A stretch of 64,000 nucleotides of DNA, taken from the NCBI GenBank assembly GCA_900770925.1, contig CAAGLY010000002.1, positions 18,942-82,941 of the forward strand, written 5' to 3'. The notes beneath the pieces were generated by a model. It was not told where the DNA came from and made no database searches. It was given only the letters and a program-made list of their open reading frames with translations. Position numbers and translations under genes: made by a program. Below, in pieces: positions 14,656 through 32,355 of the stretch. The number at the start of each line of letters is the position of its first letter. Position 1 is the stretch's first letter. The DNA comes from Bacilli bacterium. Lineage in GTDB: Bacteria > Bacillota_I > Bacilli_A > RFN20 > CAG-288.

Positions 14656-16304
14656 AAAAGACCTTGTCTTTTTTCCTTTCAGCTTTTGTTCTGACTTCGT
14701 GCGGAGTCACTTCTGTTTCTCCTTCGGTTTCTGTTCCTACACCCGAAAAAGAATGTTCTGTTCTTGTTTGCTTCTCTGGAGATGGAGAGGAAGGAAAAAG
14801 TCTGAAAATAAAAGAATCTTTCCGGGAAAGAAATAAAACATCTTCTATTAGCTATGAAAGGCTTCCTCTTGGAACAAATGGAAGCAACTATGCTTCATTA
14901 GTTGAGAGTAAAGTTCTGTCGGCTGATTATGCCAAAGTTCTTGTTATCGGTCAGAAAACAGGATTTTATTTACAGGATACCTTTCAACATCTGCAGGGAA
15001 TCGATTTCGTTACCATCGATGCTGAAAATATTTATTCCTATTCCAATGTCAGGAGCTACGATTTCATTCCGGAAGAGATTGGATATCTCGCTTCGGGTTT
15101 GAGGAAAGAAAACAAAGTCGGCTATTTTTCTTCCTTTGATGATCAAAACGATAAAAAAAGACTATTTGGTTTTCTCCAGAAGCAGAAGGAAATCTCTGTA
15201 TCTAAGCACGTCTATGTTCACCATATTGAGGAAACCTCCAATTATGAAAAAACAGTTGCTTATTATAATGACTTAAAGGAAAAAGGAGTTCAGGCACTAT
15301 TTGAATCAATCGGAGATAATTATGATTTTCTTCCTGAAGAAGAGAAGAGGAAAGTTATCTCTGTTTCTTCTTCGGATTTTCTCTACAAGGACAGGGAGGC
15401 TGTTTACGATCGGATTGAAAAGGACATTCTTTCCCAAAAAGTCAAAAACACAGAGTTATCTTATAAGGATGGGTATCTGAAATTCAAAGACGGACATCAG
15501 GAAACGCTATCTTATCTTCCTTATGATGAAGGACAATTCAAACAGTTATCCGAGGAACTGATAGTCGATTCTTCAAATGATTATGGTCCGAAATACTCTG
15601 TCGATATTCCCTATCATGAAGGAATCCCCGAATGCGGTGAGACCAATGATTGGAAACATGCTCCACGTTATGGTGCTGATCATGGACGAAAACCATCTGG
15701 ATGGACAGCCATAGGCGCCTGGGCGACCATCTATAGCCAAGAAGGGTTCAGACGGGCGGAAAATACCGGAATTGAATTCAAGAACAGGAGAATCTGGGGG
15801 TACACTGAGCAGACCGGTTGGAAACTGATTGAATGGGCGAACCCGGTCGGCTCTTTCTACGACAAAGACTTCAAGAATGATTATCACAAGGATTTCCCGC
15901 TCTGTTTCAGAAACAATCCAAGTAATAAGACGACTCAGATTAAACTGGATGGAACAAACAAGGGCTTCAATTATCATCCTTTTTCCAGCCAAAACGACCT
16001 GATTCCTGCCGGACTCGAAAATCTCACCTATGTTATCTCCACAATGGATATTCGTCTCATTGTCTGGGATAAAAACAAGGAATCCGATATTGACAATGCA
16101 AAATACGTGGCAAACATCGGAGCAGATTACTGGAGTAAAAAAGGCGCTGTCTGGCAGCCGGACTGGTCGACAAACCGTGATGTCTGTGTTGGACAATTTC
16201 GGACAATTACAAAAAAATGGAAAACTCTCTATAGGACTAATATTCCCATAGATCAATACGATTCCGTCGTAAAGGACGGAAAGTTCTTATCTGAATTCGA
16301 GTAA
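14652..16304 (+). CDS. surface lipoprotein with a BMP/PBP1-like N-terminal domain and an uncharacterised C-terminal domain
   Basis: The signal peptide carries a lipobox (FVLTSC). The N-terminal region resembles BMP/PnrA binding proteins (FIPEEIGYLASGLRKENKVGYFSSFDDQ...RLFGF). The RBS is AGGAGGTG. Confidence 0.5.
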   Translation: MKKTLSFFLSAFVLTSCGVTSVSPSVSVPTPEKECSVLVCFSGDGEEGKSLKIKESFRERNKTSSISYERLPLGTNGSNYASLVESKVLSADYAKVLVIGQKTGFYLQDTFQHLQGIDFVTIDAENIYSYSNVRSYDFIPEEIGYLASGLRKENKVGYFSSFDDQNDKKRLFGFLQKQKEISVSKHVYVHHIEETSNYEKTVAYYNDLKEKGVQALFESIGDNYDFLPEEEKRKVISVSSSDFLYKDREAVYDRIEKDILSQKVKNTELSYKDGYLKFKDGHQETLSYLPYDEGQFKQLSEELIVDSSNDYGPKYSVDIPYHEGIPECGETNDWKHAPRYGADHGRKPSGWTAIGAWATIYSQEGFRRAENTGIEFKNRRIWGYTEQTGWKLIEWANPVGSFYDKDFKNDYHKDFPLCFRNNPSNKTTQIKLDGTNKGFNYHPFSSQNDLIPAGLENLTYVISTMDIRLIVWDKNKESDIDNAKYVANIGADYWSKKGAVWQPDWSTNRDVCVGQFRTITKKWKTLYRTNIPIDQYDSVVKDGKFLSEFE

Positions 16305-16401
16305 GATACGGGACGGGACTTGGTATACCAACAAAAGACGAACTGGCAGTCCTTAGTAAGGAGAAAGTACAAATGAGGACTGGCTGTATGTACTTATTTT
16401 T

Positions 16402-18042
16402 ATGCGGAACAAATTCAAATGTTTGATGACAATCTTAAGTGCTTTGGCACTGACTGGATGTGGTGTTAAGACGAGTGAATCAGGAAATATTCCTTCTGAA
16501 ACTGGTAAGAAGTCGTCTGTTTCTCAGCAAGCCGGAAAAATAAACGGAATTACGATGAGGAAGGAAGGAGTCGCCTGTGAAACTGTGTCGGTTGGCGCAG
16601 GATACACGGTTCAGCTTTCTGCTGAGGTCAATGCAACCGGAAATCCGGATAAAACCATTTCTTGGGAAACTAGTAATCCAAAGATTGCCACAGTTGATAC
16701 GAACGGACTTGTTACTGGTGTTGATTTCGGTGATTGTGAGATTAGTGCAAAAATCGGAAAAATCAAAGCAAGCTGCAAAGTCTCTGTCACTGACTATCAT
16801 CGTTCCTCTTCGGTGTTTGAAAATATTACCCGTTTAGCAAACAATCCTTACAATACACAGAACGGGCTTGCTGATTATGTGATTGATTGCTCATCCGAGG
16901 ACTATGTTACGGTTAAGTTTGATCGTGGTGCTACGGATAAGTGGGCATCTATTATCTTAAATTATGATGCCAAAATCTATGACTATACTGATTTTCAGTT
17001 AGGAGTTGAGCTGGTTAGCGGACATCTTTCAACGTTCGGTGTTGAGTTCCAGGGAACGAATGAATTCAAATCATTTTATAACGTTTCCTTGGAACAGGGA
17101 AAAGAAGCCGTTTTGAATGTTCCGCTTACCGATTATATTATCGAAGATTCCGGCAGCTGGTCTTCTATTGCTTTAGAATTCAATAATCCGACAGATGATA
17201 ATGATTCTAATCGCAAGGAAAACGAAAATGTTGAATTACGAATCAAGAAAGCAAAGCTTGTGAAAGGAGAAAAGAAAGCGCCTGGAAAAGTCGAAGGCCT
17301 GAAATTCGATGAGACTCTTCAGAAGCTCTCTTTCAAGAAAGTCATTGGGGCAACAGAGTATAAGGTCGAGGCGACAAAAGATGGTTCCCCCCTTGAATTA
17401 GATACTGCTTATACCCGCTTTGCTTCTATTACAGAGCCGATGACCGATATCCGTACGGTTTTCACTCCGAAGAAGACAAAAGATATCAATCAGAACTTCG
17501 CTGAAATCAAAGGTGTCTATACTTTCCAGATTACAGCAAAGAATAGTGTCGGATTTGGAACGCCTAGCGAGAAAATCACTGTCAATATTGATCAGAATGC
17601 TAGTGAGGAGAAGTCCGGATTCACTTGCATTGGATTTACCGATGGAACGATTAGTCCGAATCAATACAATGGAGATAAGGAATCGTATTCTACAGAAAAG
17701 AAGGAAGACGGATATCATCTGAAGTTTACAGGAAGTGCTGGCCATGAGTGGGATTCCTTTACTGCGAACTTTGGTACAGCCCAGGCGTTTAAACACTTCA
17801 AAATGAAGTTCTCCGTTCTTAAGGGAAATCCTGTAGAGGCAGTTGCCGAACTTGCCGGTGCTACCGACGAAGGAAAACAGCAGCATTCCTTTACCATCAC
17901 CGAAGGGGAAAATGTTGTGGCGTTTGACATTACCTGCGATACCACAAAAGGCTATGGTCGTTTAAGCCTTCAGTTTGGTCATTCCGGTGCCGCCTGCGGA
18001 GAAACCGAAATTCTTCTTACCGATTTAGAAATTACGGAATAA
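16402..18042 (+). CDS. surface lipoprotein with a Big_2 (bacterial Ig-like) domain
   Basis: The signal peptide carries a lipobox (ALALTGC). The Big_2 signature reads VSVGAGYTVQLSAEVNATGNPDKTISWETSNPKIATVDTNGLVTGV. The start context is unusual (see the uORF finding). Confidence 0.6.
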   Translation: MRNKFKCLMTILSALALTGCGVKTSESGNIPSETGKKSSVSQQAGKINGITMRKEGVACETVSVGAGYTVQLSAEVNATGNPDKTISWETSNPKIATVDTNGLVTGVDFGDCEISAKIGKIKASCKVSVTDYHRSSSVFENITRLANNPYNTQNGLADYVIDCSSEDYVTVKFDRGATDKWASIILNYDAKIYDYTDFQLGVELVSGHLSTFGVEFQGTNEFKSFYNVSLEQGKEAVLNVPLTDYIIEDSGSWSSIALEFNNPTDDNDSNRKENENVELRIKKAKLVKGEKKAPGKVEGLKFDETLQKLSFKKVIGATEYKVEATKDGSPLELDTAYTRFASITEPMTDIRTVFTPKKTKDINQNFAEIKGVYTFQITAKNSVGFGTPSEKITVNIDQNASEEKSGFTCIGFTDGTISPNQYNGDKESYSTEKKEDGYHLKFTGSAGHEWDSFTANFGTAQAFKHFKMKFSVLKGNPVEAVAELAGATDEGKQQHSFTITEGENVVAFDITCDTTKGYGRLSLQFGHSGAACGETEILLTDLEITE

Positions 18043-18061
18043 TTTCCAGAAAGGAGACAAA

Positions 18062-18096
18062 AGGCTGCTAATTCTTTAGCAGCCTCTTTATTTCAT
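18062..18096 (+). terminator. Rho-independent terminator-like hairpin directly abutting the next start codon
   Basis: The stem is AGGCTGCTAA-TTCT-TTAGCAGCCT, a perfect 10 bp, followed by CTTTATTTCATT. The ATG is at 18098. Confidence 0.6.
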
Positions 18097-18097
18097 T

Positions 18098-19306
18098 ATG
18101 AATGCTAAAGAATATATTATTTCTCATCTTCATGATACGCTACGAAAAAAGGGACGTCAGGAAGGCGCTAGGAGCCTGCCGTATTCCTACACCGCTCCTT
18201 GTGCAAATGGATTGTTTGATGATCTGTACTATTGGGATACTTATTTTTTTAACAAGGCACTTCTTCTCGAAGGAGAAGAACAGAGGGTTCGTGATAATAT
18301 TCTTGACTTCTGTTTCCTTATTGAACAATACGGCTTTATTCCGAATTCGGCTAATTTCGGAATGGTGAATCGCACTCAGGTGCCCTATTTTATCTTGATG
18401 TGCGATGAGTATCTTTCAAAGTATCCAAGCGTAGCAAGGCAGAAGAGGCTTTTCCCTTACAGGAAAAAAGAATATGAGTTCTGGATGGCAAATCGTCTCC
18501 TTCCCTGTGGGCTAAACCATTATTCCGGACATGCCGATGACCATTTTCTTGAAGAATTTTCTAAGGTATTTACGCAGCGGGTTCATACCCTCAGCCATCC
18601 GGAATTTGATTTGAAAACAATCGGGCATAATGCAATTGCGGAATGTGAATCAGGATGGGATTTCTCTTCCCGTTTTGATCAGCGCTGTGTTGATTTCGCC
18701 CCTGTTGATTTAAATGCCCTTCTTTATATCAATGAAGGAATCCTTGCCAAATACTCCAATAGTCCAACAGAAAAGGAGCAATACCTTTTTGCACAGAAAA
18801 AACGCAAGGAAAACAGGATGAAGTATAGGTATAAGGATGGTCTTTTCTTTGATTATGATACAAAGAATAAAAAGACATCCTCTTTCTATCATTGTGGAAT
18901 GTTCTATCCGTTCCTTGCTGACTTTACCTTTGATAAAAATGCTTTTGAGAAACTATGTTCTAAGTTGATCTATCCAAAAGGAATTGCAGCTTCAGAGAAG
19001 ATAGACAATACTCACAATTACCAGTGGGGATTTCCGAACAGGTGGCCGAATCTTGCAATGGTTTCTTTCTTTTCCTGCCTAAACGTCAAGGAAAACGAGC
19101 TTGCTAAGGAAATTGGACTGAAATACCTTTCGACTGTAGAAGAAGCCTATTTGGAAACAGGATGCCTTTGGGAAAAATATGATGTTCTCTTTGGCGGAAA
19201 GAGCCGGAAAAACGAATATCAGGATACGGAGAGGATGGGATGGACGGCAGGTACCTATCTTGTTTTGGAGAGCGAATGCCGTAGAAGAGGGTGGATTCAT
19301 GAATAA
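18098..19306 (+). CDS. glycoside hydrolase, trehalase-like (GH37 or clan GH-G fold)
   Basis: One motif resembles trehalase signature 1 (GLFDDLYYWDTYFF, compared with GGRFxExYYWDSY). Another resembles signature 2 (YQWGFPNRWPNL, compared with QWDYPNAWPP). Confidence 0.5.
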   Translation: MNAKEYIISHLHDTLRKKGRQEGARSLPYSYTAPCANGLFDDLYYWDTYFFNKALLLEGEEQRVRDNILDFCFLIEQYGFIPNSANFGMVNRTQVPYFILMCDEYLSKYPSVARQKRLFPYRKKEYEFWMANRLLPCGLNHYSGHADDHFLEEFSKVFTQRVHTLSHPEFDLKTIGHNAIAECESGWDFSSRFDQRCVDFAPVDLNALLYINEGILAKYSNSPTEKEQYLFAQKKRKENRMKYRYKDGLFFDYDTKNKKTSSFYHCGMFYPFLADFTFDKNAFEKLCSKLIYPKGIAASEKIDNTHNYQWGFPNRWPNLAMVSFFSCLNVKENELAKEIGLKYLSTVEEAYLETGCLWEKYDVLFGGKSRKNEYQDTERMGWTAGTYLVLESECRRRGWIHE

Positions 19307-21245
19307 AAGGGAACATTTGACTTCTTTTGGTTCCTGGGATATTAAGGATAGCAAAGGCAATTTATATCGCTGCAGTGATGGACCGAACGGAATTCGTGAG
19401 GTCATAAAAGAACAGAACGGATATCAGATTGCTAAGGAAAGCGATGCCTATCCCACCTTATCTTTTCTGGGAAACACATTTGATGAGGAAATTGTCGAAA
19501 AAATCGGATATTGTCTTGGCCAGGAATGCCGGGAAAAAGGGATTTCTCTCCTTTTAGGACCGGGAGTCAATATTAAACGGACTCCTCTTTGCGGTAGAAA
19601 CTTTGAATATTTTTCTGAAGATCCTTATCTTTCCGGCCGGCTCGGGTATTCCTATATCCAGGGAGTACAAAGACATCATGTCGGTTGTGCTTTGAAGCAT
19701 TTTTCCTGTAATAATCGGGAGTATGATCGCTTTTTTCAGAGCAGCGAAGTGGATGAACGGACACTTCACGAAATCTACTTCCGTCCGTTTGAAATCGCTC
19801 TGAAAGCCCATCCCTATGCTTTGATGTGTTCCTATAATCCGGTGAACGGAATTCTTGCCAGTGAGAATTCCTATCTTCTGAAAGAGGTTCTTCGACAGGA
19901 GTTTTCCTACCAAGGACTTATTATTTCGGATTGGGGAGCTGTCCGAAATCGGGCGATTTCCCTGAAAGCAGGAATTGATGTAGCCTTTCCTTACAATCCT
20001 TCTTTTTCTAGTCAGCTGGAAGAAGGATATCGGGATGGATATCTTTCAGACAAGGAGATTGACGCTTCCTTGAATCGGATTGATCATTTTGCAGATCAAG
20101 TAAACAGGAATGAACCGACAGAAAAAGCGAATCAATATCAGGTCATGAAAGAAGCATGTCTTTCTGGAATCGTTCTTCTGAAGAACGAGGAAGGGATTCT
20201 CCCTTTATCTCCGCTGAAGAAGAATATTCTTCTTTTGGGGTCCATACTGGATCAACCGATTCTTGGTGGCGGCGGTTCTTCTCAGATTACTCCCAAGAAT
20301 GAAGTAAAAAGCTTATTGAATGCTCTAACAGATATTGATCAAAGCCATAACTATTCCTACGAACAGGCTTATAGGATGCGTTATTCCTTGGTAACTCCTT
20401 TTGGATTTAAGATTGCTAGGGAAAAGGCGTATTCTGCTGATGTGGTTATCCTTGGAGTGGCAGATACGATTCTCGAGGAAAAAGAAGAGACCGATCGGAC
20501 AAGCTTATCTCTTGACCAGGCCTATCTTGATCTGATTGATAAAGTAGCAAGAATCAATCCGAATATTGTCTTAGTCGTTCAGTCCGGGTCTGCGGTTGAT
20601 CTTTCCGTTGTTCAGAGCAAAGTAAAAGCAATCCTTCAAATTGGCTATGCTGGTGAAAGGATTTATCCGGCACTTGCTGAAATTCTTCTTGGCAAAGTAT
20701 CACCGAGCGGACGTCTAGCGGAATCCTATCCTCTTTCTTTAGAAGACACCTACACGAAAGGAAAGGTTGGGAATTCCTTCAGGGAACGTTATACAGATGG
20801 AGTATTTGTCGGATATCGTTATTATTGCAGTGAAGAAATTCCGGTTCTGTATCCGTTTGGATACGGACTTTCCTATCTAAATGTCTGTTATTTATCTCTT
20901 GAGGTAAATGATAACTATCAAGTCAAAGTGCTAATCCGTAATGATTCGGATAGGCCAGGAAAAGAAGTTGTCCAGCTTTATATCCGGGAAGTCTTTCCGT
21001 CTGTTTCCCGCCCTATTCGTGAATTGAAGGCCTTTAAAAAAGTAAGTATACTTCCACATGAAACAAAAGAAGTCGTCTTTTCTCTCTCTAAAGAAGATTT
21101 CATGTACTATTCTGTGAATCTTCATCGTTATTATCTTGAACCAGGAAGTTATGAGATTCAGATTGGCCGCAATGCCAACGATATTGTTCTGAGTAAGAAA
21201 ATCAATATTCAGGTAGCAAAATGGGAAGGATATTCAAGATATTAA
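19299..21245 (+). CDS. glycoside hydrolase family 3 (beta-glucosidase or beta-N-acetylhexosaminidase)
   Basis: The N-terminal GH3 signature reads LLGPGVNIKRTPLCGRNFEYFSEDPYL. The catalytic-Asp region reads GLIISDWGAV. An RBS precedes the ATG at 19299. The track start at 19179 is upstream of that RBS. Confidence 0.8.
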   Translation: MNKREHLTSFGSWDIKDSKGNLYRCSDGPNGIREVIKEQNGYQIAKESDAYPTLSFLGNTFDEEIVEKIGYCLGQECREKGISLLLGPGVNIKRTPLCGRNFEYFSEDPYLSGRLGYSYIQGVQRHHVGCALKHFSCNNREYDRFFQSSEVDERTLHEIYFRPFEIALKAHPYALMCSYNPVNGILASENSYLLKEVLRQEFSYQGLIISDWGAVRNRAISLKAGIDVAFPYNPSFSSQLEEGYRDGYLSDKEIDASLNRIDHFADQVNRNEPTEKANQYQVMKEACLSGIVLLKNEEGILPLSPLKKNILLLGSILDQPILGGGGSSQITPKNEVKSLLNALTDIDQSHNYSYEQAYRMRYSLVTPFGFKIAREKAYSADVVILGVADTILEEKEETDRTSLSLDQAYLDLIDKVARINPNIVLVVQSGSAVDLSVVQSKVKAILQIGYAGERIYPALAEILLGKVSPSGRLAESYPLSLEDTYTKGKVGNSFRERYTDGVFVGYRYYCSEEIPVLYPFGYGLSYLNVCYLSLEVNDNYQVKVLIRNDSDRPGKEVVQLYIREVFPSVSRPIRELKAFKKVSILPHETKEVVFSLSKEDFMYYSVNLHRYYLEPGSYEIQIGRNANDIVLSKKINIQVAKWEGYSRY

Positions 21246-21246
21246 T

Positions 21247-22749
21247 ATGACAATTGAGATACAGATTCGGCAAGGAGAATCCTATTATGGCCTGGCCTGT
21301 AATGAAGGCGTTCGTTTTCCGTTGACTCAATCCAGTAGCTATGAATTTGATCTGAGAACCTATCATAGCGGAAATCAGGCGAGTTCTGTTCTTCTTTCGA
21401 CAAGGGGAAAGTATATCTATAGTGACTATCCCTTCCATATCCTTGTGAAAAAAGGAATTAGGACACTCGAAGGAAAGGATATTCTGGTTAAGGAAAATGG
21501 AAAGACGCTGAAGTCCGCTCACCAAGGTCTGATCAGAGACTTTTTCCGTTCCGACCATCGCATTCCAGATGAGAGAAGGTTCACCAGGATTCAATACAAT
21601 ACCTGGATTGAAAGGGGATGGGATTGCACGGAAGAAAAAGTTCTCCAGTATGCATCATCGATTCTTGAACACGGCTATCCTGCCGGAATTCTTAGGATTG
21701 ATGACTGTTGGTGCAAGGACTATGGAGAATGGGACTTTGATCCTAGTAAGTTCAAAAACCCGGGAAAGAGGGTGGAGAAGCTTCATCAGAGGGGTTTCCT
21801 TGTCATGCTTTGGTGCTGTCCGTTTGTTTCTCCGGACAGTGCTCGGTTCCGTTCGCAGGAATCTCTCTTTTTCCGGAATAAAAAAGGAGACACCGGTATC
21901 TCTCATTGGTGGAATGGCTATTCTGCTGTCTATGACAGGACTCTTCCCGAAGCAAGAAGTGCGTTTCTAGCGTCGCTTTCTTTCCTTAAGGAAAAATACG
22001 GAATTGATGGCTTTAAGCTTGATGCCGGAGATCCGGAATATTATCCAGATGATTTTGAATTCCATGGAATCGAACGTTCAAGGCAGGCTAAGGAATATGC
22101 GGCTCTTGGTGAGAAATTTCCTCTTTCCGAACTCCGTGTTGCTTTTAATAATAATCTGAAAGGAGTTGCCCATCGTCTGAGAGATAAAAACCATTCCTGG
22201 AACGAGGATGGCATCAACACATTGATACCTGATGGAATCAGGGAAGGCTTGCTTGGTTATCCTTACTTCTGTCCAGATAGGATCGGAGGAGGTATGCTTT
22301 TAGATTTTACCAAACCGGATTTTGTGTTTTCACAGGACCTTTTTGTCCGCTATGCCCAGGCCGCTGCATATAGGCCTAGGAGGCAGTTTTCTCTTATGCC
22401 TTATAAAAAATTGGATGAAGAACATTTAGAGGCAGTAAAAAAAGCCGTAGATATCCATCTTAAAAATTCCGGCCTTATCGTTTCTTTAGCTAAACAGTCT
22501 AAAGAGACAGGAGAACCGATTGTAAAGCCTTTGAATTATTTTTACCCAGGTTCAGCATATGATTCGATTAAAGACGAATTCGTTTTGACGGAGGACTTTC
22601 TTGTTGCGCCAATGGTGCAGGAAGGAACAAGCAGAGAAGTGGTGATTCCCGATGGAATCTGGGTGGATGAAACCGGAAAACAATATTCGAAAGGAACATA
22701 TCAGATTGAAGTTCCGCTTAATCGTATCCCTGTTTTCCGTAAAAGGTAA
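21247..22749 (+). CDS. clan GH-D glycosidase (GH27/GH36-like alpha-galactosidase or alpha-N-acetylgalactosaminidase family)
   Basis: The GH27-type signature reads GILRIDDCWCKDYGEWDFDPSKF. The downstream motif GIDGFKLDAGD can be compared with GVDYLKYDNC. Confidence 0.5.
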   Translation: MTIEIQIRQGESYYGLACNEGVRFPLTQSSSYEFDLRTYHSGNQASSVLLSTRGKYIYSDYPFHILVKKGIRTLEGKDILVKENGKTLKSAHQGLIRDFFRSDHRIPDERRFTRIQYNTWIERGWDCTEEKVLQYASSILEHGYPAGILRIDDCWCKDYGEWDFDPSKFKNPGKRVEKLHQRGFLVMLWCCPFVSPDSARFRSQESLFFRNKKGDTGISHWWNGYSAVYDRTLPEARSAFLASLSFLKEKYGIDGFKLDAGDPEYYPDDFEFHGIERSRQAKEYAALGEKFPLSELRVAFNNNLKGVAHRLRDKNHSWNEDGINTLIPDGIREGLLGYPYFCPDRIGGGMLLDFTKPDFVFSQDLFVRYAQAAAYRPRRQFSLMPYKKLDEEHLEAVKKAVDIHLKNSGLIVSLAKQSKETGEPIVKPLNYFYPGSAYDSIKDEFVLTEDFLVAPMVQEGTSREVVIPDGIWVDETGKQYSKGTYQIEVPLNRIPVFRKR

Positions 22750-22827
22750 AAAAAGAGTATTGACCTATGTTTTTCACAATTTCATGTATGTAACCGGTTT
22801 CCTATAATGGAAATGGTGAGGTATGCC

Positions 22828-23919
22828 ATGGAAAATTATGAAAAGCTGACCATCGGAAAAAGATATCTGACAGGAAGGATTAATCTTGGCCTTGTTTTTC
22901 TTTTTACTCTTTTCCTCTATTTAGTGGGAGGAATCGGGATTGGAAAGAAAATGGTGGGCTTTGATCAGGAAGTCCTACACCAGAAGAAACTTACCGGCGA
23001 AATCTATAATCATAGGTATGATACCCACCTTTATTGCAAAGATAAAGATGGTAATGCAAGGGAAGTGGATGAAATTTTCAAAAACTATGTTCAGAACCAG
23101 CTTTCTGGGGAAATGAAAGATGCAGATGGCAGTTATCTTGATCCGCTTGCTTATTATTACATCAGCTTTGATAAATCTAGGTCAGTCAATGAATTCAATC
23201 ATCAGATTCTTCTTGTTGGAAACGAAGATTCGTTCTATGAAGCAAAGGATAGGGAAAGCCTAGGATATCTCAAACTTGAAGTGAAGGAAAAGCTGTCTTC
23301 TTATTTTGATGGAAAGATGACGGATTCGAACAAGAAAACATATAATTCATTTTCTGATTTTTTCTCGAAAGCCTGGTTCAATGCCGTAGAGAAAGAAAAG
23401 AAAGGACCAATCATCACTTCATTAGTGAATCAGTTCAATCAATCGGTCCTACTGCAGGGATTGGGTTTAGGAATACCGGCACTCTGCTCTTATCTGATTG
23501 TAAGGATTCTCTTTGAATTTATCCTGCCTCTTTCCTGCAAGCAGCGGACAAGGGGGAACCTTCTTCTTCATTCTGACATCCGAAGAAAAAGCGGCAATTT
23601 TCGCCCAGCTTGGTGGCAGACACTGATTCGGTTTCTTGTCAATCTTATTCTTGATTGCTATATTCCTTTCTATGTTCTTGCCCTTGTTACTGGTGTAGAG
23701 AACGCATGCAAGGTTCCTTTGCTGAAGATTGGTTCTTTCTCTCTCCCGCTAGCAACCGTAGGATTTACCCTTACGATTTTCGCTTTAATCAATCTTTTTG
23801 TCCTCTCTTTTAGTAAATCCCATCAATCTTATGCTGATCTGATAACGGCGACTTATCACGCAAAGCGTGTCGAAAATCAAACGGAGGAAAATACAGATGG
23901 CAGACGTAAAGCTCATTAA
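22828..23919 (+). CDS. hypothetical polytopic membrane protein
   Basis: There are several TM helices. An RBS (GGTGAGG) precedes the ATG at 22828. The ATGs at 22807 and 22813 sit inside or next to a TATAAT at 22801-22806. The 3' end overlaps the following ATPase gene. Confidence 0.4.
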   Translation: MENYEKLTIGKRYLTGRINLGLVFLFTLFLYLVGGIGIGKKMVGFDQEVLHQKKLTGEIYNHRYDTHLYCKDKDGNAREVDEIFKNYVQNQLSGEMKDADGSYLDPLAYYYISFDKSRSVNEFNHQILLVGNEDSFYEAKDRESLGYLKLEVKEKLSSYFDGKMTDSNKKTYNSFSDFFSKAWFNAVEKEKKGPIITSLVNQFNQSVLLQGLGLGIPALCSYLIVRILFEFILPLSCKQRTRGNLLLHSDIRRKSGNFRPAWWQTLIRFLVNLILDCYIPFYVLALVTGVENACKVPLLKIGSFSLPLATVGFTLTIFALINLFVLSFSKSHQSYADLITATYHAKRVENQTEENTDGRRKAH

Positions 23920-29113: not shown

Positions 29114-29149
29114 TCTATCTATTTCTTTAATATAAGGAGCGCCGAACAA

Positions 29150-30268
29150 TGAAAGAACTTTCTGATCTGAATCGTTTACACGATACTCTTTCGGAACAGG
29201 TCCTTTCTTTGCAAGGCTGCCTTTGACTTCCCTAGACTGGAAGAAGAGAAGGCAGCCTTAAGCAAGCAAAGCGAGGATCCGTCGTTCTGGAAAAATCCAA
29301 GCTTAGCTGCCAGTGTTAACCGTAAATTAGCCGATATCGAAAATAAAATCAATTCGATTGAATCCTTTAAGTCCCGCCTTTCCTCGATTCAGGAGTCTTT
29401 AGATTTCCTGAAAGAGGATAGGGATAAGGATATCTTTGAGGATGCTGATCAGTCCCTGAATACCCTGAATAAGGACTTTGACGTTTTTTCTAAGACAATC
29501 TTCTATTCTGGCCCTTATGATGAGGCAAACGCTATTCTTGAATTTCATCCCGGAGCGGGCGGAACAGAAGCTCATGATTGGGCACAGAGGCTTTTAAGAA
29601 GGTATGAACGTTTCTGTGAATCGAATGGCTATCATTATAAGATTGTCGATAGGATTGAGGGAGAAGAGGCCGGTATTTCCTCTGCTACAAGGGTTGTGGA
29701 AGGAAAGAGGGCGTATGGAAACCTTCGCTCTGAGAACGGAGTCCATCGCTTAGTCCGTATCTCGCCTTTTGATGCTTCCGGTTCCCGGCATACTTCTTTT
29801 GCTTCCGTTTCCGTCATTCCGGAAATCGATGATTCCATCGATATCGAAATCCGTCCGGAAGATTTAAGAATCGATACCTATCATTCTTCCGGTGCAGGCG
29901 GACAGAATGTCAATAAGACGGAGTCTGCTGTCCGTATTACCCATCTTCCTACCGGCATTGTCGTATCCTGCCAGATTGAGCGGGATCAGCTTGCCAATAA
30001 GGAAACCTGTAGGGAAATGCTCCGCTCGAAGCTGTTCCAGATCGAACTGAAGAAAAAACAGGATGAACTGAATAAGATTTCTGGACAGAAGAAGGATATT
30101 TCCTTCTCTAGCCAGATCCGTTCGTATGTCTTCTGCCCCTATACCTTAGTTAAAGATCATCGGGATGACTATTCGGAAGTCTCTGTCCAGTCCGTCATGG
30201 ACGGAAAGATAAACGGATTCATCGATGCTTATCTGAAATGGGATTTCAGGAGAAATCATCAGAAATGA
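29150..30268 (+). CDS. prfB: peptide chain release factor 2, carrying the programmed +1 frameshift site CTT TGA C at 29221-29227. The 5' frame is anomalous (see finding).
   Basis: The post-shift frame encodes DFPRLEEEKAALSKQSEDPSFW...SGAGGQNVNKTESAVRITHLPTGIVV, giving the GGQ motif and an SPF-type region. The shift site and the upstream AAGG match the classical RF2 autoregulatory site. Synteny with secA is conserved. Confidence 0.85.
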
Positions 30269-31389
30269 AATGGTCTAGGAAATCTTGGCTGAAAAAGGAA
30301 GCCGGAATCATCAAGCGTGAATTCACGAGTGAAAGCCCCCGGAAGATAATCCAAAACATCCTTTATATTGTCTTAGGAGCTTCTATCTCTGCTTTTGCTG
30401 ATTCTTTCTTCACTATTCCTCTCAACATTGTCTCTGGCGGTATTGCTTCCCTATCCATTATTTCTCATCAGATTCCAGGGAGGAGTCAGATATCGACGGA
30501 GAGGTATGTCCTGATCTATACCTGGGGATTCTTCTTCCTCGGACTGATATTGGTCGGATTGAAGTATTCTCTTAACACGCTTGTCTATTCTATTACATAT
30601 CCGTTAATGGTCAGGCTCTTCACCTTTATGGTTAACCATGCCTGTATCGATGGGAATCATATCTTCAATGTTGTAGAGAGGGCATCCCGGATGGATCCTT
30701 CTCTGACAAGGCCAGACGGGAGCGCAGTAAATGCTAAGGACTGGTTACCTTTAGCTTATCTAGTCGGAGCAATCTTCGGAGGCAGGCTGGTCGGAACAGG
30801 TATCGGATTCGCCTTTGTCGGAGGAGGCTCCTCCGGAGGCACGGATGTGATTAATGTCCTCGCTAACCGATATCTTCATATCCGGATCGGAACATCCACC
30901 TTTATCTGTGACTTGCTGATTATCTCTGGCGGTTTCTTCGTGAATGGATACCAGCTGATTCCGACTCTTGTCGGCATTCTCTCTGCCTTCCTCTGTTCTT
31001 TTAGGATCGATAAAGTGTTCTTAGGGAACAGGCAGTATTTCATGGCTCTTGTCTCGTCTGAGAAAATCGATGAAAGGAATCAATTCATCAATCAGGATCT
31101 TGGCCGAGGCACGACCTTGATTTCCTGTCGTGGCGGCTATACGAAAAAACAGACGGAATTGCTTCAGGTCTGCTTCGATAAGCATGATTATTCGGTCATT
31201 AGGCAGGCCATTAAGCAATTTGATCCGAATGCCTTTGTTTCCGTTGTTGCCACGAAAGAAATTCTAGGATATGGCTTCACGCGGTCTACTCCGAAAGTGA
31301 ATAGGAAAGACATCGCTCTTTCCCCGGATGATGCAAGAAAACTCACAGCGAAAGCCCATCGCCTGAAAAAGAAAAACAGGTCGGAATAA
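30265..31389 (+). CDS. YitT-family membrane protein (DUF161/DUF2179)
   Basis: The ATG at 30265 overlaps the prfB stop as ATGA. There is a five-to-six-TM N-terminal domain and a C-terminal DUF2179-like soluble domain. Confidence 0.65.
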   Translation: MKWSRKSWLKKEAGIIKREFTSESPRKIIQNILYIVLGASISAFADSFFTIPLNIVSGGIASLSIISHQIPGRSQISTERYVLIYTWGFFFLGLILVGLKYSLNTLVYSITYPLMVRLFTFMVNHACIDGNHIFNVVERASRMDPSLTRPDGSAVNAKDWLPLAYLVGAIFGGRLVGTGIGFAFVGGGSSGGTDVINVLANRYLHIRIGTSTFICDLLIISGGFFVNGYQLIPTLVGILSAFLCSFRIDKVFLGNRQYFMALVSSEKIDERNQFINQDLGRGTTLISCRGGYTKKQTELLQVCFDKHDYSVIRQAIKQFDPNAFVSVVATKEILGYGFTRSTPKVNRKDIALSPDDARKLTAKAHRLKKKNRSE

Positions 31390-31807: not shown

Positions 31808-32193
31808 CAGAATGAATCGAAATAGAAGACCATGCCTCTATTGAGAACGATTTCCTTTTTTCCGTTTTCGTCTAGACTGTTTTCAAGATTTGGTGAGTCA
31901 AAATCAAGATAGAAGGGCGTGCGGTAGAAATAGCATCCCCTGGCTGTTCCCTGGATATTCCGGACCAGGTCATCATCATAGCGAAGTACATAATCTCTTT
32001 GGAAGAGATGGTATTCTTGATATTTCCTTTCACCGGAAAAACAGATTGTGCCGTCTTCTTTGGTTTCCCTTGTATACTGCTTGAAGTAAACGGCCACATA
32101 ATCGGCTGTTGTTTTAATGTTAGAACTTTCGTTACATCCGACTAGTAGAAAAGAAATTGTGGCGAAGAATAATGATTTATTCATGTTAAACAC
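31807..32193 (-). CDS. lipoprotein, function unknown
   Basis: The signal peptide carries a lipobox (MFNMNKSLFFATISFLLVGC). The gene is co-oriented with the preceding lipoprotein gene and directly abuts it. Confidence 0.5.
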   Translation of the reverse strand: MFNMNKSLFFATISFLLVGCNESSNIKTTADYVAVYFKQYTRETKEDGTICFSGERKYQEYHLFQRDYVLRYDDDLVRNIQGTARGCYFYRTPFYLDFDSPNLENSLDENGKKEIVLNRGMVFYFDSF

Positions 32194-32355
32194 CCACGCT
32201 TGTTATCAATTTTTACTATAATACCACCTCCAACTTATTTTCAAGCTTTTTTGAAATTAAAAGCTGGTAAAGTCTGTAACGGGTAATCTACTAAGTCTTC
32301 AGCAATGAAGCAGGGAAAATCATTCCACCCTAGGAACATAGTGCACTATTTTCTT

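Follow-up and report, generated by a model that had tools for sequence, protein, structure and literature searches.

The window considered here is a stretch of 64,000 nucleotides (nt) from contig CAAGLY010000002.1 of a Bacilli bacterium (GenBank assembly GCA_900770925.1), with a G+C content of 42.7%. Among its genes is one for a Big_2 lipoprotein of 546 amino acids (aa; 16402..18042, on the forward strand like all the leader features described below), a member of a glycan-utilisation operon whose product matches Pfam PF02368 (Big_2) over residues 60-120 with 48.4 bits against a cutoff of 22.8, and also matches PF22359 (Big-like). The gene is separated from that of the preceding 550-aa lipoprotein (stop codon TAA at 16302-04) by an intergenic leader of 97 nt (16305..16401), and it is the translation signals of this leader that form the subject of the analysis, for its sole strong Shine-Dalgarno sequence (SD) stands before a short open reading frame (ORF) that runs, out of frame, across the start of the lipoprotein gene.

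This SD, termed SD1 (AAGGAGAAA, 16358..16366), ends 6 nt before ATG 16373, with 9 nt between its GGAG core and that codon, values that replace the single gap of 7 nt given in an earlier, sequence-only reading of the window. Native SD spacings in the window range from 7 to 10 nt, and the separation of SD1 from ATG 16373 falls within this range, as is typical of real genes; the same core stands 38 nt before ATG 16402. The ORF opened by ATG 16373 has 17 codons (16373..16426 including its TGA; ATG AGG ACT GGC TGT ATG TAC TTA TTT TTA TGC GGA ACA AAT TCA AAT GTT TGA, peptide MRTGCMYLFLCGTNSNV), lies in frame +1 relative to the lipoprotein frame and spans ATG 16402. Its TGA (16424-26) shares one base with a further ATG at 16426, giving a TGATG (16424..16428) in which the second codon is Met9 of the lipoprotein, in frame with ATG 16402. 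Up to this point the layout given by the sequence-only reading is confirmed by direct reading of the letters. Its statement that SD1 is the only SD in the region has to be given up, since an SD-like GAGGA at 16375-79 (SD2) is followed, after a spacer of 8 nt, by ATG 16388 (16375..16390). The latter is codon 6 of the short ORF and yields a 12-codon version of it, MYLFLCGTNSNV.

The strength of these signals is reflected in their duplex energies with the anti-SD, which are -8.2 kcal/mol for the sequence upstream of ATG 16373 and -6.1 kcal/mol for SD2, against -1.6 kcal/mol for ATG 16402 and -3.3 kcal/mol for ATG 16426; by this measure no SD is found within 20 nt of ATG 16402 or ATG 16426. In terms of sequence the short ORF therefore has initiation signals of its own (an SD with a start codon at 5-10 nt), and predicted structure masks both of its AUGs. 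Directly before ATG 16402 lies a run of five T (T5, 16397..16401), the length of which decides how the frames of the short ORF and the lipoprotein relate to each other, and an ATG in the third frame is found at 16419, 5 nt before the short-ORF stop. An out-of-frame stop that overlaps an internal in-frame start occurs in 3/102 gene/frame combinations in the window; the arrangement is uncommon, though it was noticed post hoc.

Fundamental to any interpretation is the question of where the lipoprotein begins. Translation from ATG 16402 gives the N-terminus MRNKFKCLMTILSALALTGC and the signal peptide MRNKFKCLMTILSALALTG, which is followed by the lipobox cysteine, Cys20, encoded at 16459-61. Two rules for lipoproteins, as reported in PROSITE PS51257 and by Sutcliffe and Harrington in 2002, were applied as regular expressions: PS51257 (lipobox [LVI][ASTVI][GAS]C, Cys at 15-35, K/R in the first 7) and the G+LPP pattern. 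The start at 16402 passes both (LTG before the cysteine, Cys20, R2/K4/K6), and the textbook signal peptide that the sequence-only reading placed inside the short ORF, without an SD of its own, is upheld. The product of ATG 16426, MTILSALALTGC, fails both rules, with its cysteine at position 12 and no K/R.

The comparison of orthologous start regions points to the same codon. A search with the C-terminal 413 aa of the lipoprotein as query yielded orthologues of 702-703 aa with 36-38% identity, encoded in an operon of another species that is syntenic throughout. In this operon the upstream TAG stop overlaps an AGGAGG, which is followed after 6 nt by ATG (TTAGGAGGTAAACAATG); the two genes are 10 nt apart, no upstream ORF (uORF) is present, and the protein begins MKKFKK (MKKFKKIAISCLFALSLAGLAGC). 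Because this n-region resembles the MRNKFK encoded from ATG 16402, the latter is taken to be the homologous, ancestral start. The continuous ORF from an SD-proximal ATG, which the sequence-only reading would have accepted as a sign of sequencing error, is thus formally found (38% identity), and what it shows is an evolutionary rearrangement and not an error. Orthologues of intermediate divergence did not appear in two protein searches, which returned only a cluster at 90% identity or above and the 36-38% orthologue, and a metagenome DNA scan added two loci. Within the syntenic operon the position corresponding to the 552-aa putative binding lipoprotein of the window, which has no Pfam match, is occupied by a SBP_bac_1 protein (locus L042).

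Public annotation places the start elsewhere. The public 90% cluster P0001 has 684 members, and each of the 40 that were read is called from ATG 16426 (538-539 aa), which is probably an 8-residue truncation arising from systematic mis-annotation of the start site. Since a call at 16426 drops MRNKFKCL, the charged n-region of the signal peptide, automated predictions of localisation would be wrong for this abundant surface protein of a gut bacterium.

The arrangement was followed through 49 copies of the start region (201 nt, 16280-16480), which comprise the window, 2 species-representative genomes, 2 metagenome contigs and 44 ENA/Logan contigs, some of which share sequencing runs. SD1 is invariant and ATG 16388 is present in 49/49, and every copy has at least one SD-led AUG in the frame of the short ORF. 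The T5 run is found in 48/49 copies, drawn from many samples and assemblers. A T4 occurs in one, L001, and a T6, by which ATG 16373 would be brought into frame with the lipoprotein, in none; the one-nucleotide frame error that the sequence-only reading offered as an alternative is ruled out, as far as sequencing error is concerned, by these assemblies. The T4 looks like a real non-coding variant, since it is the sole indel of L001 in 7.6 kb; it turns the short ORF into one of 31 codons in the third frame with a stop 38 nt further downstream, and the TGATG overlap is lost. The only other indel among the copies, also in the leader, is the shortening of a tandem GGGACGGGAC (16308-16319) to a single GGGAC in L003, a metagenome contig. 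With the same frame relation in 48/49 assemblies, the arrangement is fixed in the species.

Substitutions in the copies are of interest in two places. In 3/49 (L035, L036 and L039, on two haplotype backgrounds) T16374G converts ATG 16373 to AGG, and the same change turns SD2 into AAAGGAGGA, 8 nt before ATG 16388. Across codons 1-15 of the 16402 frame all 4 polymorphisms are synonymous; one of them, at 16422 (TGT>TGC, codon 7), lies upstream of ATG 16426 and produces V17A in the short ORF.

Constraint on the leader can be gauged against L004, which is 96.4% identical to the window over 8.2 kb. The leader has 5/97 changes (0.052; binomial P = 3e-5 against 0.20), where the upstream gene and the Big_2 gene have diverged at four-fold sites by 0.229 and 0.184, respectively, a comparison that points to purifying selection on the leader. 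The lipoprotein itself, with 34 nonsynonymous and 61 synonymous codon changes, is likewise under purifying selection. Two of the L004 changes fall in the 16402 frame of the overlap and both are synonymous, while the short-ORF peptide acquires G4D, Y7C and V17A. The idea of a conserved small protein is rejected on this ground, the peptide being altered at 3/17 positions, all nonsynonymously, in one divergent lineage. Along the operon (15190-23379) four-fold divergence from L004 declines gene by gene (0.23, 0.18, 0.08, 0.04, 0.03, 0.03), which suggests either a recombination boundary near 18-19 kb or a more rapid turnover of the genes for the two surface lipoproteins.

Two inverted repeats in the leader can form hairpins that place the signals in very different settings. 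The first (I1) gives hairpin B (16347..16382), in which CAGUCCUUA (16347-55) pairs with UGAGGACUG (16374-82) at -10.6 to -12 kcal/mol and with a pair probability of 0.99 in three sequence contexts. Hairpin B presents SD1 in an 18-nt loop (unpaired probability 0.91) and pairs the UG of AUG 16373 together with all of SD2; in L004 it contains a C50.A79 mismatch and in the AGG allele it is without the A55-U74 pair. The second (I2, 7 nt, 100% complementary) gives hairpin A (16365..16395), in which AAGUACA (16365-71) pairs with UGUACUU (16389-95) around a 17-nt loop at -4.5 to -6.1 kcal/mol, with a pair probability of 0.003 in the major allele. If formed, hairpin A would bring SD1 to an effective distance of 7 nt from AUG 16402, given that the GGAG core ends at 16363 and the remaining spacer is 1+6 nt. 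In L004 hairpin A is part of the minimum free energy (MFE) structure, A16392G retains the pair as U.G, and the helix is extended by pairing of SD1 with the U-run. Comparison of the alleles gave no real covariation support for either hairpin. The folding of the whole leader is not unusual (z = -0.5), and a narrower window chosen post hoc gives z of about -2.

The accessibility of the individual start codons can be expressed as the energy needed to open them. For AUG 16373 this is 10.9 kcal/mol over -4..+12 and 14.2 kcal/mol over -15..+12; the corresponding values are 6.3 and 13.9 kcal/mol for AUG 16388, 6.9 and 7.4 kcal/mol for AUG 16426, and 3.2 and 5.8 kcal/mol for AUG 16402. The ranking, with AUG 16373 the most closed and AUG 16402 the most open, holds for the window, L004, L035 and L001 alleles alike, and AUG 16402 is open to a degree comparable with that of two SD-less starts taken as controls, at 1001 and 21247.

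The leader is a genuine, species-fixed translational leader. Its anatomy, its fixation in the population, the constraint upon it, the orthology of the start and the ranking of accessibility have been established, while the AUGs that are put to use, and their proportions, are inferred. The interpretation that is favoured, tentatively and with a probability of about 40%, is that initiation at AUG 16402 is SD-independent and that the short ORF, masked by a hairpin, acts as a modulator. The ancestral layout was an SD, 6 nt and ATG; the junction here is some 87 nt longer than in the sister species, and the only strong SD now lies about 40 nt upstream of the true start and fronts the out-of-frame AUGs 16373 and 16388. 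No part of the leader is more open than the U-rich stretch around AUG 16402, and for this reason initiation there would need no SD. Hairpin B would largely mask both start regions of the short ORF and leave SD1 exposed in its loop, and because of this masking the short ORF is seen as a modulator rather than as a prerequisite. Those ribosomes that do start on the short ORF would occlude AUG 16402; after the UGAUG stop, efficient reinitiation would be open to them at AUG 16426 alone, and the signal peptide of the resulting form is defective. In addition, SD1 may serve as a docking site for ribosomes or as an mRNA-stabilising site.

There is support in the literature for both parts of this scheme. 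Start codons in locally unstructured mRNA can be initiated without an SD (Scharff et al. 2011, PMC3121790), and AUG 16402 agrees with such systems in being SD-less, in having the lowest opening energy of the leader AUGs and in having the company of other SD-less genes in the window; it differs from typical SD-less genes in the strong SD and competing AUGs found just upstream. Reinitiation, for its part, works at -1/-4 overlaps, falls steeply with distance and is almost gone by about 20 nt (PMC10666635, PMC12548453), and because of this distance dependence the TGATG would feed AUG 16426 and not AUG 16402, which lies 24 nt upstream. The window itself offers precedents, for in our own crude gene model only about 30/51 genes have a strong proximal SD and roughly a third are without one; among those without, some are coupled at overlaps and about 8 are neither coupled nor SD-led. 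The next gene of the operon (ATG 18098) is also SD-less, and its SD-less start is kept in the orthologue. Other SD-less genes of the genome, the next operon gene included, would appear to initiate in the same way.

Several points weigh against SD-independent initiation with a masked modulator ORF. The main weakness is that the invariance or near-invariance of SD1, both short-ORF AUGs and the UGA is left unexplained, as harmful decoys should be selected away. The T16374G allele drops one AUG and yet upgrades SD2, such that translation of the short ORF is not obviously lost there. Ribosomes of the Firmicutes type are generally strongly SD-dependent, and thermodynamic accessibility is a weak predictor of behaviour in vivo. 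Hairpin B, on which the masking depends, is without covariation support and is broken in L004, and some of the SD-less precedents come from the crude gene model just mentioned.

The most serious competitor is positive translational coupling, in which ribosomes recruited by SD1 or SD2 would translate the short ORF, stop at UGA 16424-26 and reinitiate at AUG 16426, or perhaps by back-tracking at AUG 16402, such that the lipoprotein would depend on the short ORF. The sequence-only reading held such dependence on termination-reinitiation to be probable; on the evidence assembled here it is less likely than not, though plausible. SD1 has native-like strength and spacing, two SD-led AUGs share one frame with at least one of them retained in 49/49 copies, the main ORF is without an SD, the leader is constrained, and the T16374G allele strengthens SD2 where it loses AUG 16373. 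The -1 overlap in UGAUG has a background of only about 3% and matches the layout of known termination-reinitiation pairs at 1- or 4-nt overlaps (TGATG, ATGA; PMC6728339, PMC10666635, PMC12548453), which also have an SD-led upstream ORF and a downstream ORF without an SD. In those pairs the upstream partner is a gene, whereas here it is a non-conserved peptide of 12-17 codons. The overlapped AUG 16426 is, moreover, non-ancestral and gives the deficient signal peptide that fails both lipoprotein rules (MTILSALALTGC), while the real start lies inside the short ORF.

Distance is the further difficulty for coupling. The stop of the short ORF lies within -1 of ATG 16426, but ATG 16402 begins 24 nt before the last base of that stop and hence 24 nt upstream of the restart point; the third-frame AUG 16419 is nearer, and the dependence of reinitiation on distance is steep (PMC10666635). 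The overlap itself is found in 48/49 conspecific assemblies, is broken in L001, where the T4 moves the stop 38 nt downstream and into another frame, and is absent from the only other species with an orthologue, which does without a uORF altogether. Three strains are without ATG 16373, the short-ORF starts are the least accessible sites of the leader, and SD-less genes are common, all of which speaks against a lipoprotein that is made only by way of the short ORF.

An improbable alternative is a split ribosome-binding site, in which hairpin A, perhaps with hairpin B as an H-type pseudoknot, would loop out the decoy AUGs and set SD1 effectively about 7 nt from AUG 16402. The precedent is the split SD of phage T4 genes 38 and 25 (Nivinskas 1999; Malys & Nivinskas 2009; reviewed in PMC3014915), where structure shortens an SD-AUG spacing of 22 nt to 5 nt in gene 38 and one of 27 nt to 11 nt in gene 25. 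As in T4, the gap between SD and AUG is long (38 nt), a perfect inverted repeat lies within it and a spacing of about 7 nt would be restored, and as with gene 25 the arrangement is lineage-specific while remoter relatives are canonical. The 7-bp repeat starts 1 nt past the SD1 core, and 6 nt separate its end from AUG 16402; hairpin A is the MFE structure in L004, where the single substitution keeps its pair (U-A to U.G); and the model is compatible with both the T4 and the AGG variants. The arms of hairpins A and B share no nucleotides, from which it follows, by our own reasoning, that the pseudoknot is topologically conceivable. The geometry of a split SD is thus present (SD-AUG distance >15 nt, effective spacer 7 nt), but a stable or covariation-supported structure is not. 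Hairpin A alone is weak and out-competed in the predictions (probability 0.003 in the major allele), its z of only about -2 comes from the post-hoc window, and there is no true compensatory change. In the MFE extension SD1 pairs with the U-run, which would close the site instead of opening it, and the part to be looped out, unlike that of the T4 genes, holds two SD-led AUGs.

A more elaborate reading, which must be considered distinctly improbable, is that the gene produces two N-terminal proteoforms: an exported lipoprotein from the SD-less AUG 16402 and a signal-deficient form made by termination-reinitiation at AUG 16426, with a ratio set by alternative folds, the recently evolved, species-specific leader having come about through an expansion from 10 to 97 nt by which the ancestral SD was displaced and an SD-led decoy ORF arose. 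If this were true, the form from AUG 16426 would probably be cytoplasmic or poorly exported, the balance between hairpin B and hairpin A or the pseudoknot would set the proteoform ratio, and the conserved design at 18050-18100 would point to distal SDs with structured spacers throughout the lineage.

It is very unlikely that SD1 is mainly a docking site that stabilises the mRNA, shielding a processed downstream transcript from 5'-exonuclease, with the short ORF being incidental. The model for this would be the STAB-SD element, reportedly described in 1996 by Agaisse and Lereclus for cryIIIA of B. thuringiensis. The likeness lies in a strong SD tens of nt upstream of the authentic start in an mRNA of the Firmicutes type, with SD1 exposed in a hairpin loop. 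A second SD-like sequence without a usable start (AAGGAGACA) lies 41-50 nt before the ATG of the next gene in both species and is invariant in 48 copies, and in B. subtilis ribosomes at a strong SD do block RNase J1 (PMC5737220). The difference is that SD1 has a properly spaced AUG after it, and hence looks like a normal initiation site and not an orphan SD. A stabilising role of this kind is compatible with SD-independent initiation at AUG 16402 and does not exclude it.

An artefact or decay, be it a one-base sequencing or assembly error in the T-run, a start lost to pseudogenisation or, at A_UUU_UUA (16396-16402), programmed -1 frameshifting that would join the short ORF to the lipoprotein, is highly improbable: a T6 would fuse ATG 16373 to the lipoprotein frame (-1 to the short ORF), the UUU_UUA lies exactly at the junction and the T-run does vary in length, but T5 predominates throughout the assemblies, the gene is under purifying selection, the heptamer is non-canonical with A as its first base (compare X_XXY_YYZ), only a weak 5-bp hairpin follows downstream with no stimulatory structure standing out, the T4 allele breaks the frame relation and the precursor of a T6 fusion fails G+LPP.

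Translational attenuation by leader peptides, as occurs for erm and cat genes in Firmicutes, resembles the locus in its short SD-led leader ORF and in the alternative leader hairpins that involve SD-like sequences. It differs in that the main gene here has no SD to unmask within 20 nt of ATG 16402 or ATG 16426, that the leader peptide is non-conserved (3 nonsynonymous changes in L004), that the leader ORF overlaps the main start and that the gene encodes a glycan-utilisation lipoprotein and not a resistance determinant.

A number of other candidates for the function or origin of the leader were rejected. A promoter scan found no promoter-like site in the leader, with only poor -10 matches on inspection by eye, and an internal promoter or a leaderless start at 16402 is rejected. 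A terminator or attenuator is rejected because the only terminator-like match, at 16262-81, is internal to the upstream gene and ends in a poor T-tail, and hairpin A with its U5 is too weak. The covariance models of Rfam 15, run over 16150-16600 at E<=10, gave only two chance-level matches, far below gathering scores. Comparison of the spacer with the window and the orthologue loci gave only matches of 9-20 nt at chance level (E >=0.3), and a mobile or repeated element is rejected as its source. Within the spacer there are direct repeats, namely ACTGGCnGT, which occurs twice, and GGAGAAAGTACAAATG against GGAACAAATTCAAATG, which are too short to prove an origin by duplication.

What the locus provides is a natural before-and-after pair, with a canonical SD in the orthologue and a displaced SD with an overlapping uORF here. 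It can be used to ask how a ribosome of the Firmicutes type chooses its start when the SD has been captured by out-of-frame AUGs, and whether reinitiation can reach a start codon upstream of the stop. Current understanding is not overturned, given that SD-less initiation, split SDs, coupling and uORFs are familiar phenomena; arrangements of this kind are known, and any effect of this one on expression is putative.

The junction with the next gene of the operon (18043-18100) has a related layout. After AAAGGAGA and 5 nt there follow a GC-rich hairpin of 10 bp (-19.9 kcal/mol, z = -4), a U-rich tail of 12 nt and, directly after the tail, ATG 18098 without a proximal SD. In the orthologue (L042, 6113-6178) the order is AAGGAGACA, a 10-bp hairpin (up to 13 bp in the MFE structure; -20 kcal/mol, z = -4.3), a U-rich tail of 11 nt and ATG. 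The stem sequences are unrelated between the two species and the architecture is the same; within the species 48 copies, the 3.6%-divergent L004 among them, have an identical 55-nt spacer. The junction looks like an intrinsic terminator or attenuator that abuts an SD-less start, with an orphan SD upstream. The two species show SD-less, U-rich starts with a distal SD to be a conserved feature of the lineage.

The operon as a whole runs in the order sensor kinase, regulator, 552-aa putative binding lipoprotein, two permeases, 550-aa lipoprotein, Big_2 lipoprotein, trehalase-family glycoside hydrolase (GH), GH3 and GH31, and the window matches gut metagenome-assembled genomes labelled 'uncultured Mollicutes bacterium UMGS1247' and 'Bacillales bacterium UBA4682'. 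Elsewhere in the window, SD-less genes at 921 (minus-strand start), 1001 and 5315 (minus-strand start) have a TATAAT box 7-11 nt before the ATG, for instance ggTATAATcatttcATG at 921, and are candidates for leaderless or near-leaderless mRNAs.

Short ORFs with an SD and ATG that are otherwise unexplained number only 2 when both strands of the 5.9 kb of intergenic DNA are counted. The one that is not in the leader discussed here lies at 2701-2748, with ACGGAGGAAT directly before the ATG, 15 codons (MGSTLSIPVTHGLAR) and an SD energy of -8.9 kcal/mol. A GGAGGTG at 32185-32240 (minus strand) precedes the SD-less ATG 32184 by 47-51 nt; after it come only ATT/ATA as possible starts, in a frame that ends in ATGA at the gene start. 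This GGAGGTG most likely sits in a promoter spacer (TTGAAA...TATTAT, by our own reading), and for this reason it does not count as another instance of a uORF. That SD-led uORFs regularly precede SD-less genes throughout the genome is rejected, the Big_2 locus being the only case found.

The reading of the short-ORF stop depends on the genetic code. Code 4, in which TGA encodes Trp, is ruled out by the 9/51 window genes that end in TGA, by Trp codons that are always TGG (177 times) and by a release factor 2 (RF2) gene, prfB, with a CTT TGA C frameshift site; since prfB with its UGA frameshift site is present, TGA is a true stop here. Programmed +1 frameshifting of the RF2 gene is a known phenomenon, and this copy shows it in classic form. 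The gene lies directly 3' of secA (29149-29229 and 29228-30270), its 25-codon ORF, MKELSDLNRLHDTLSEQVLSLQGCL, terminates in CTT TGA C, and the SPF and GGQ motifs continue in the +1 frame.

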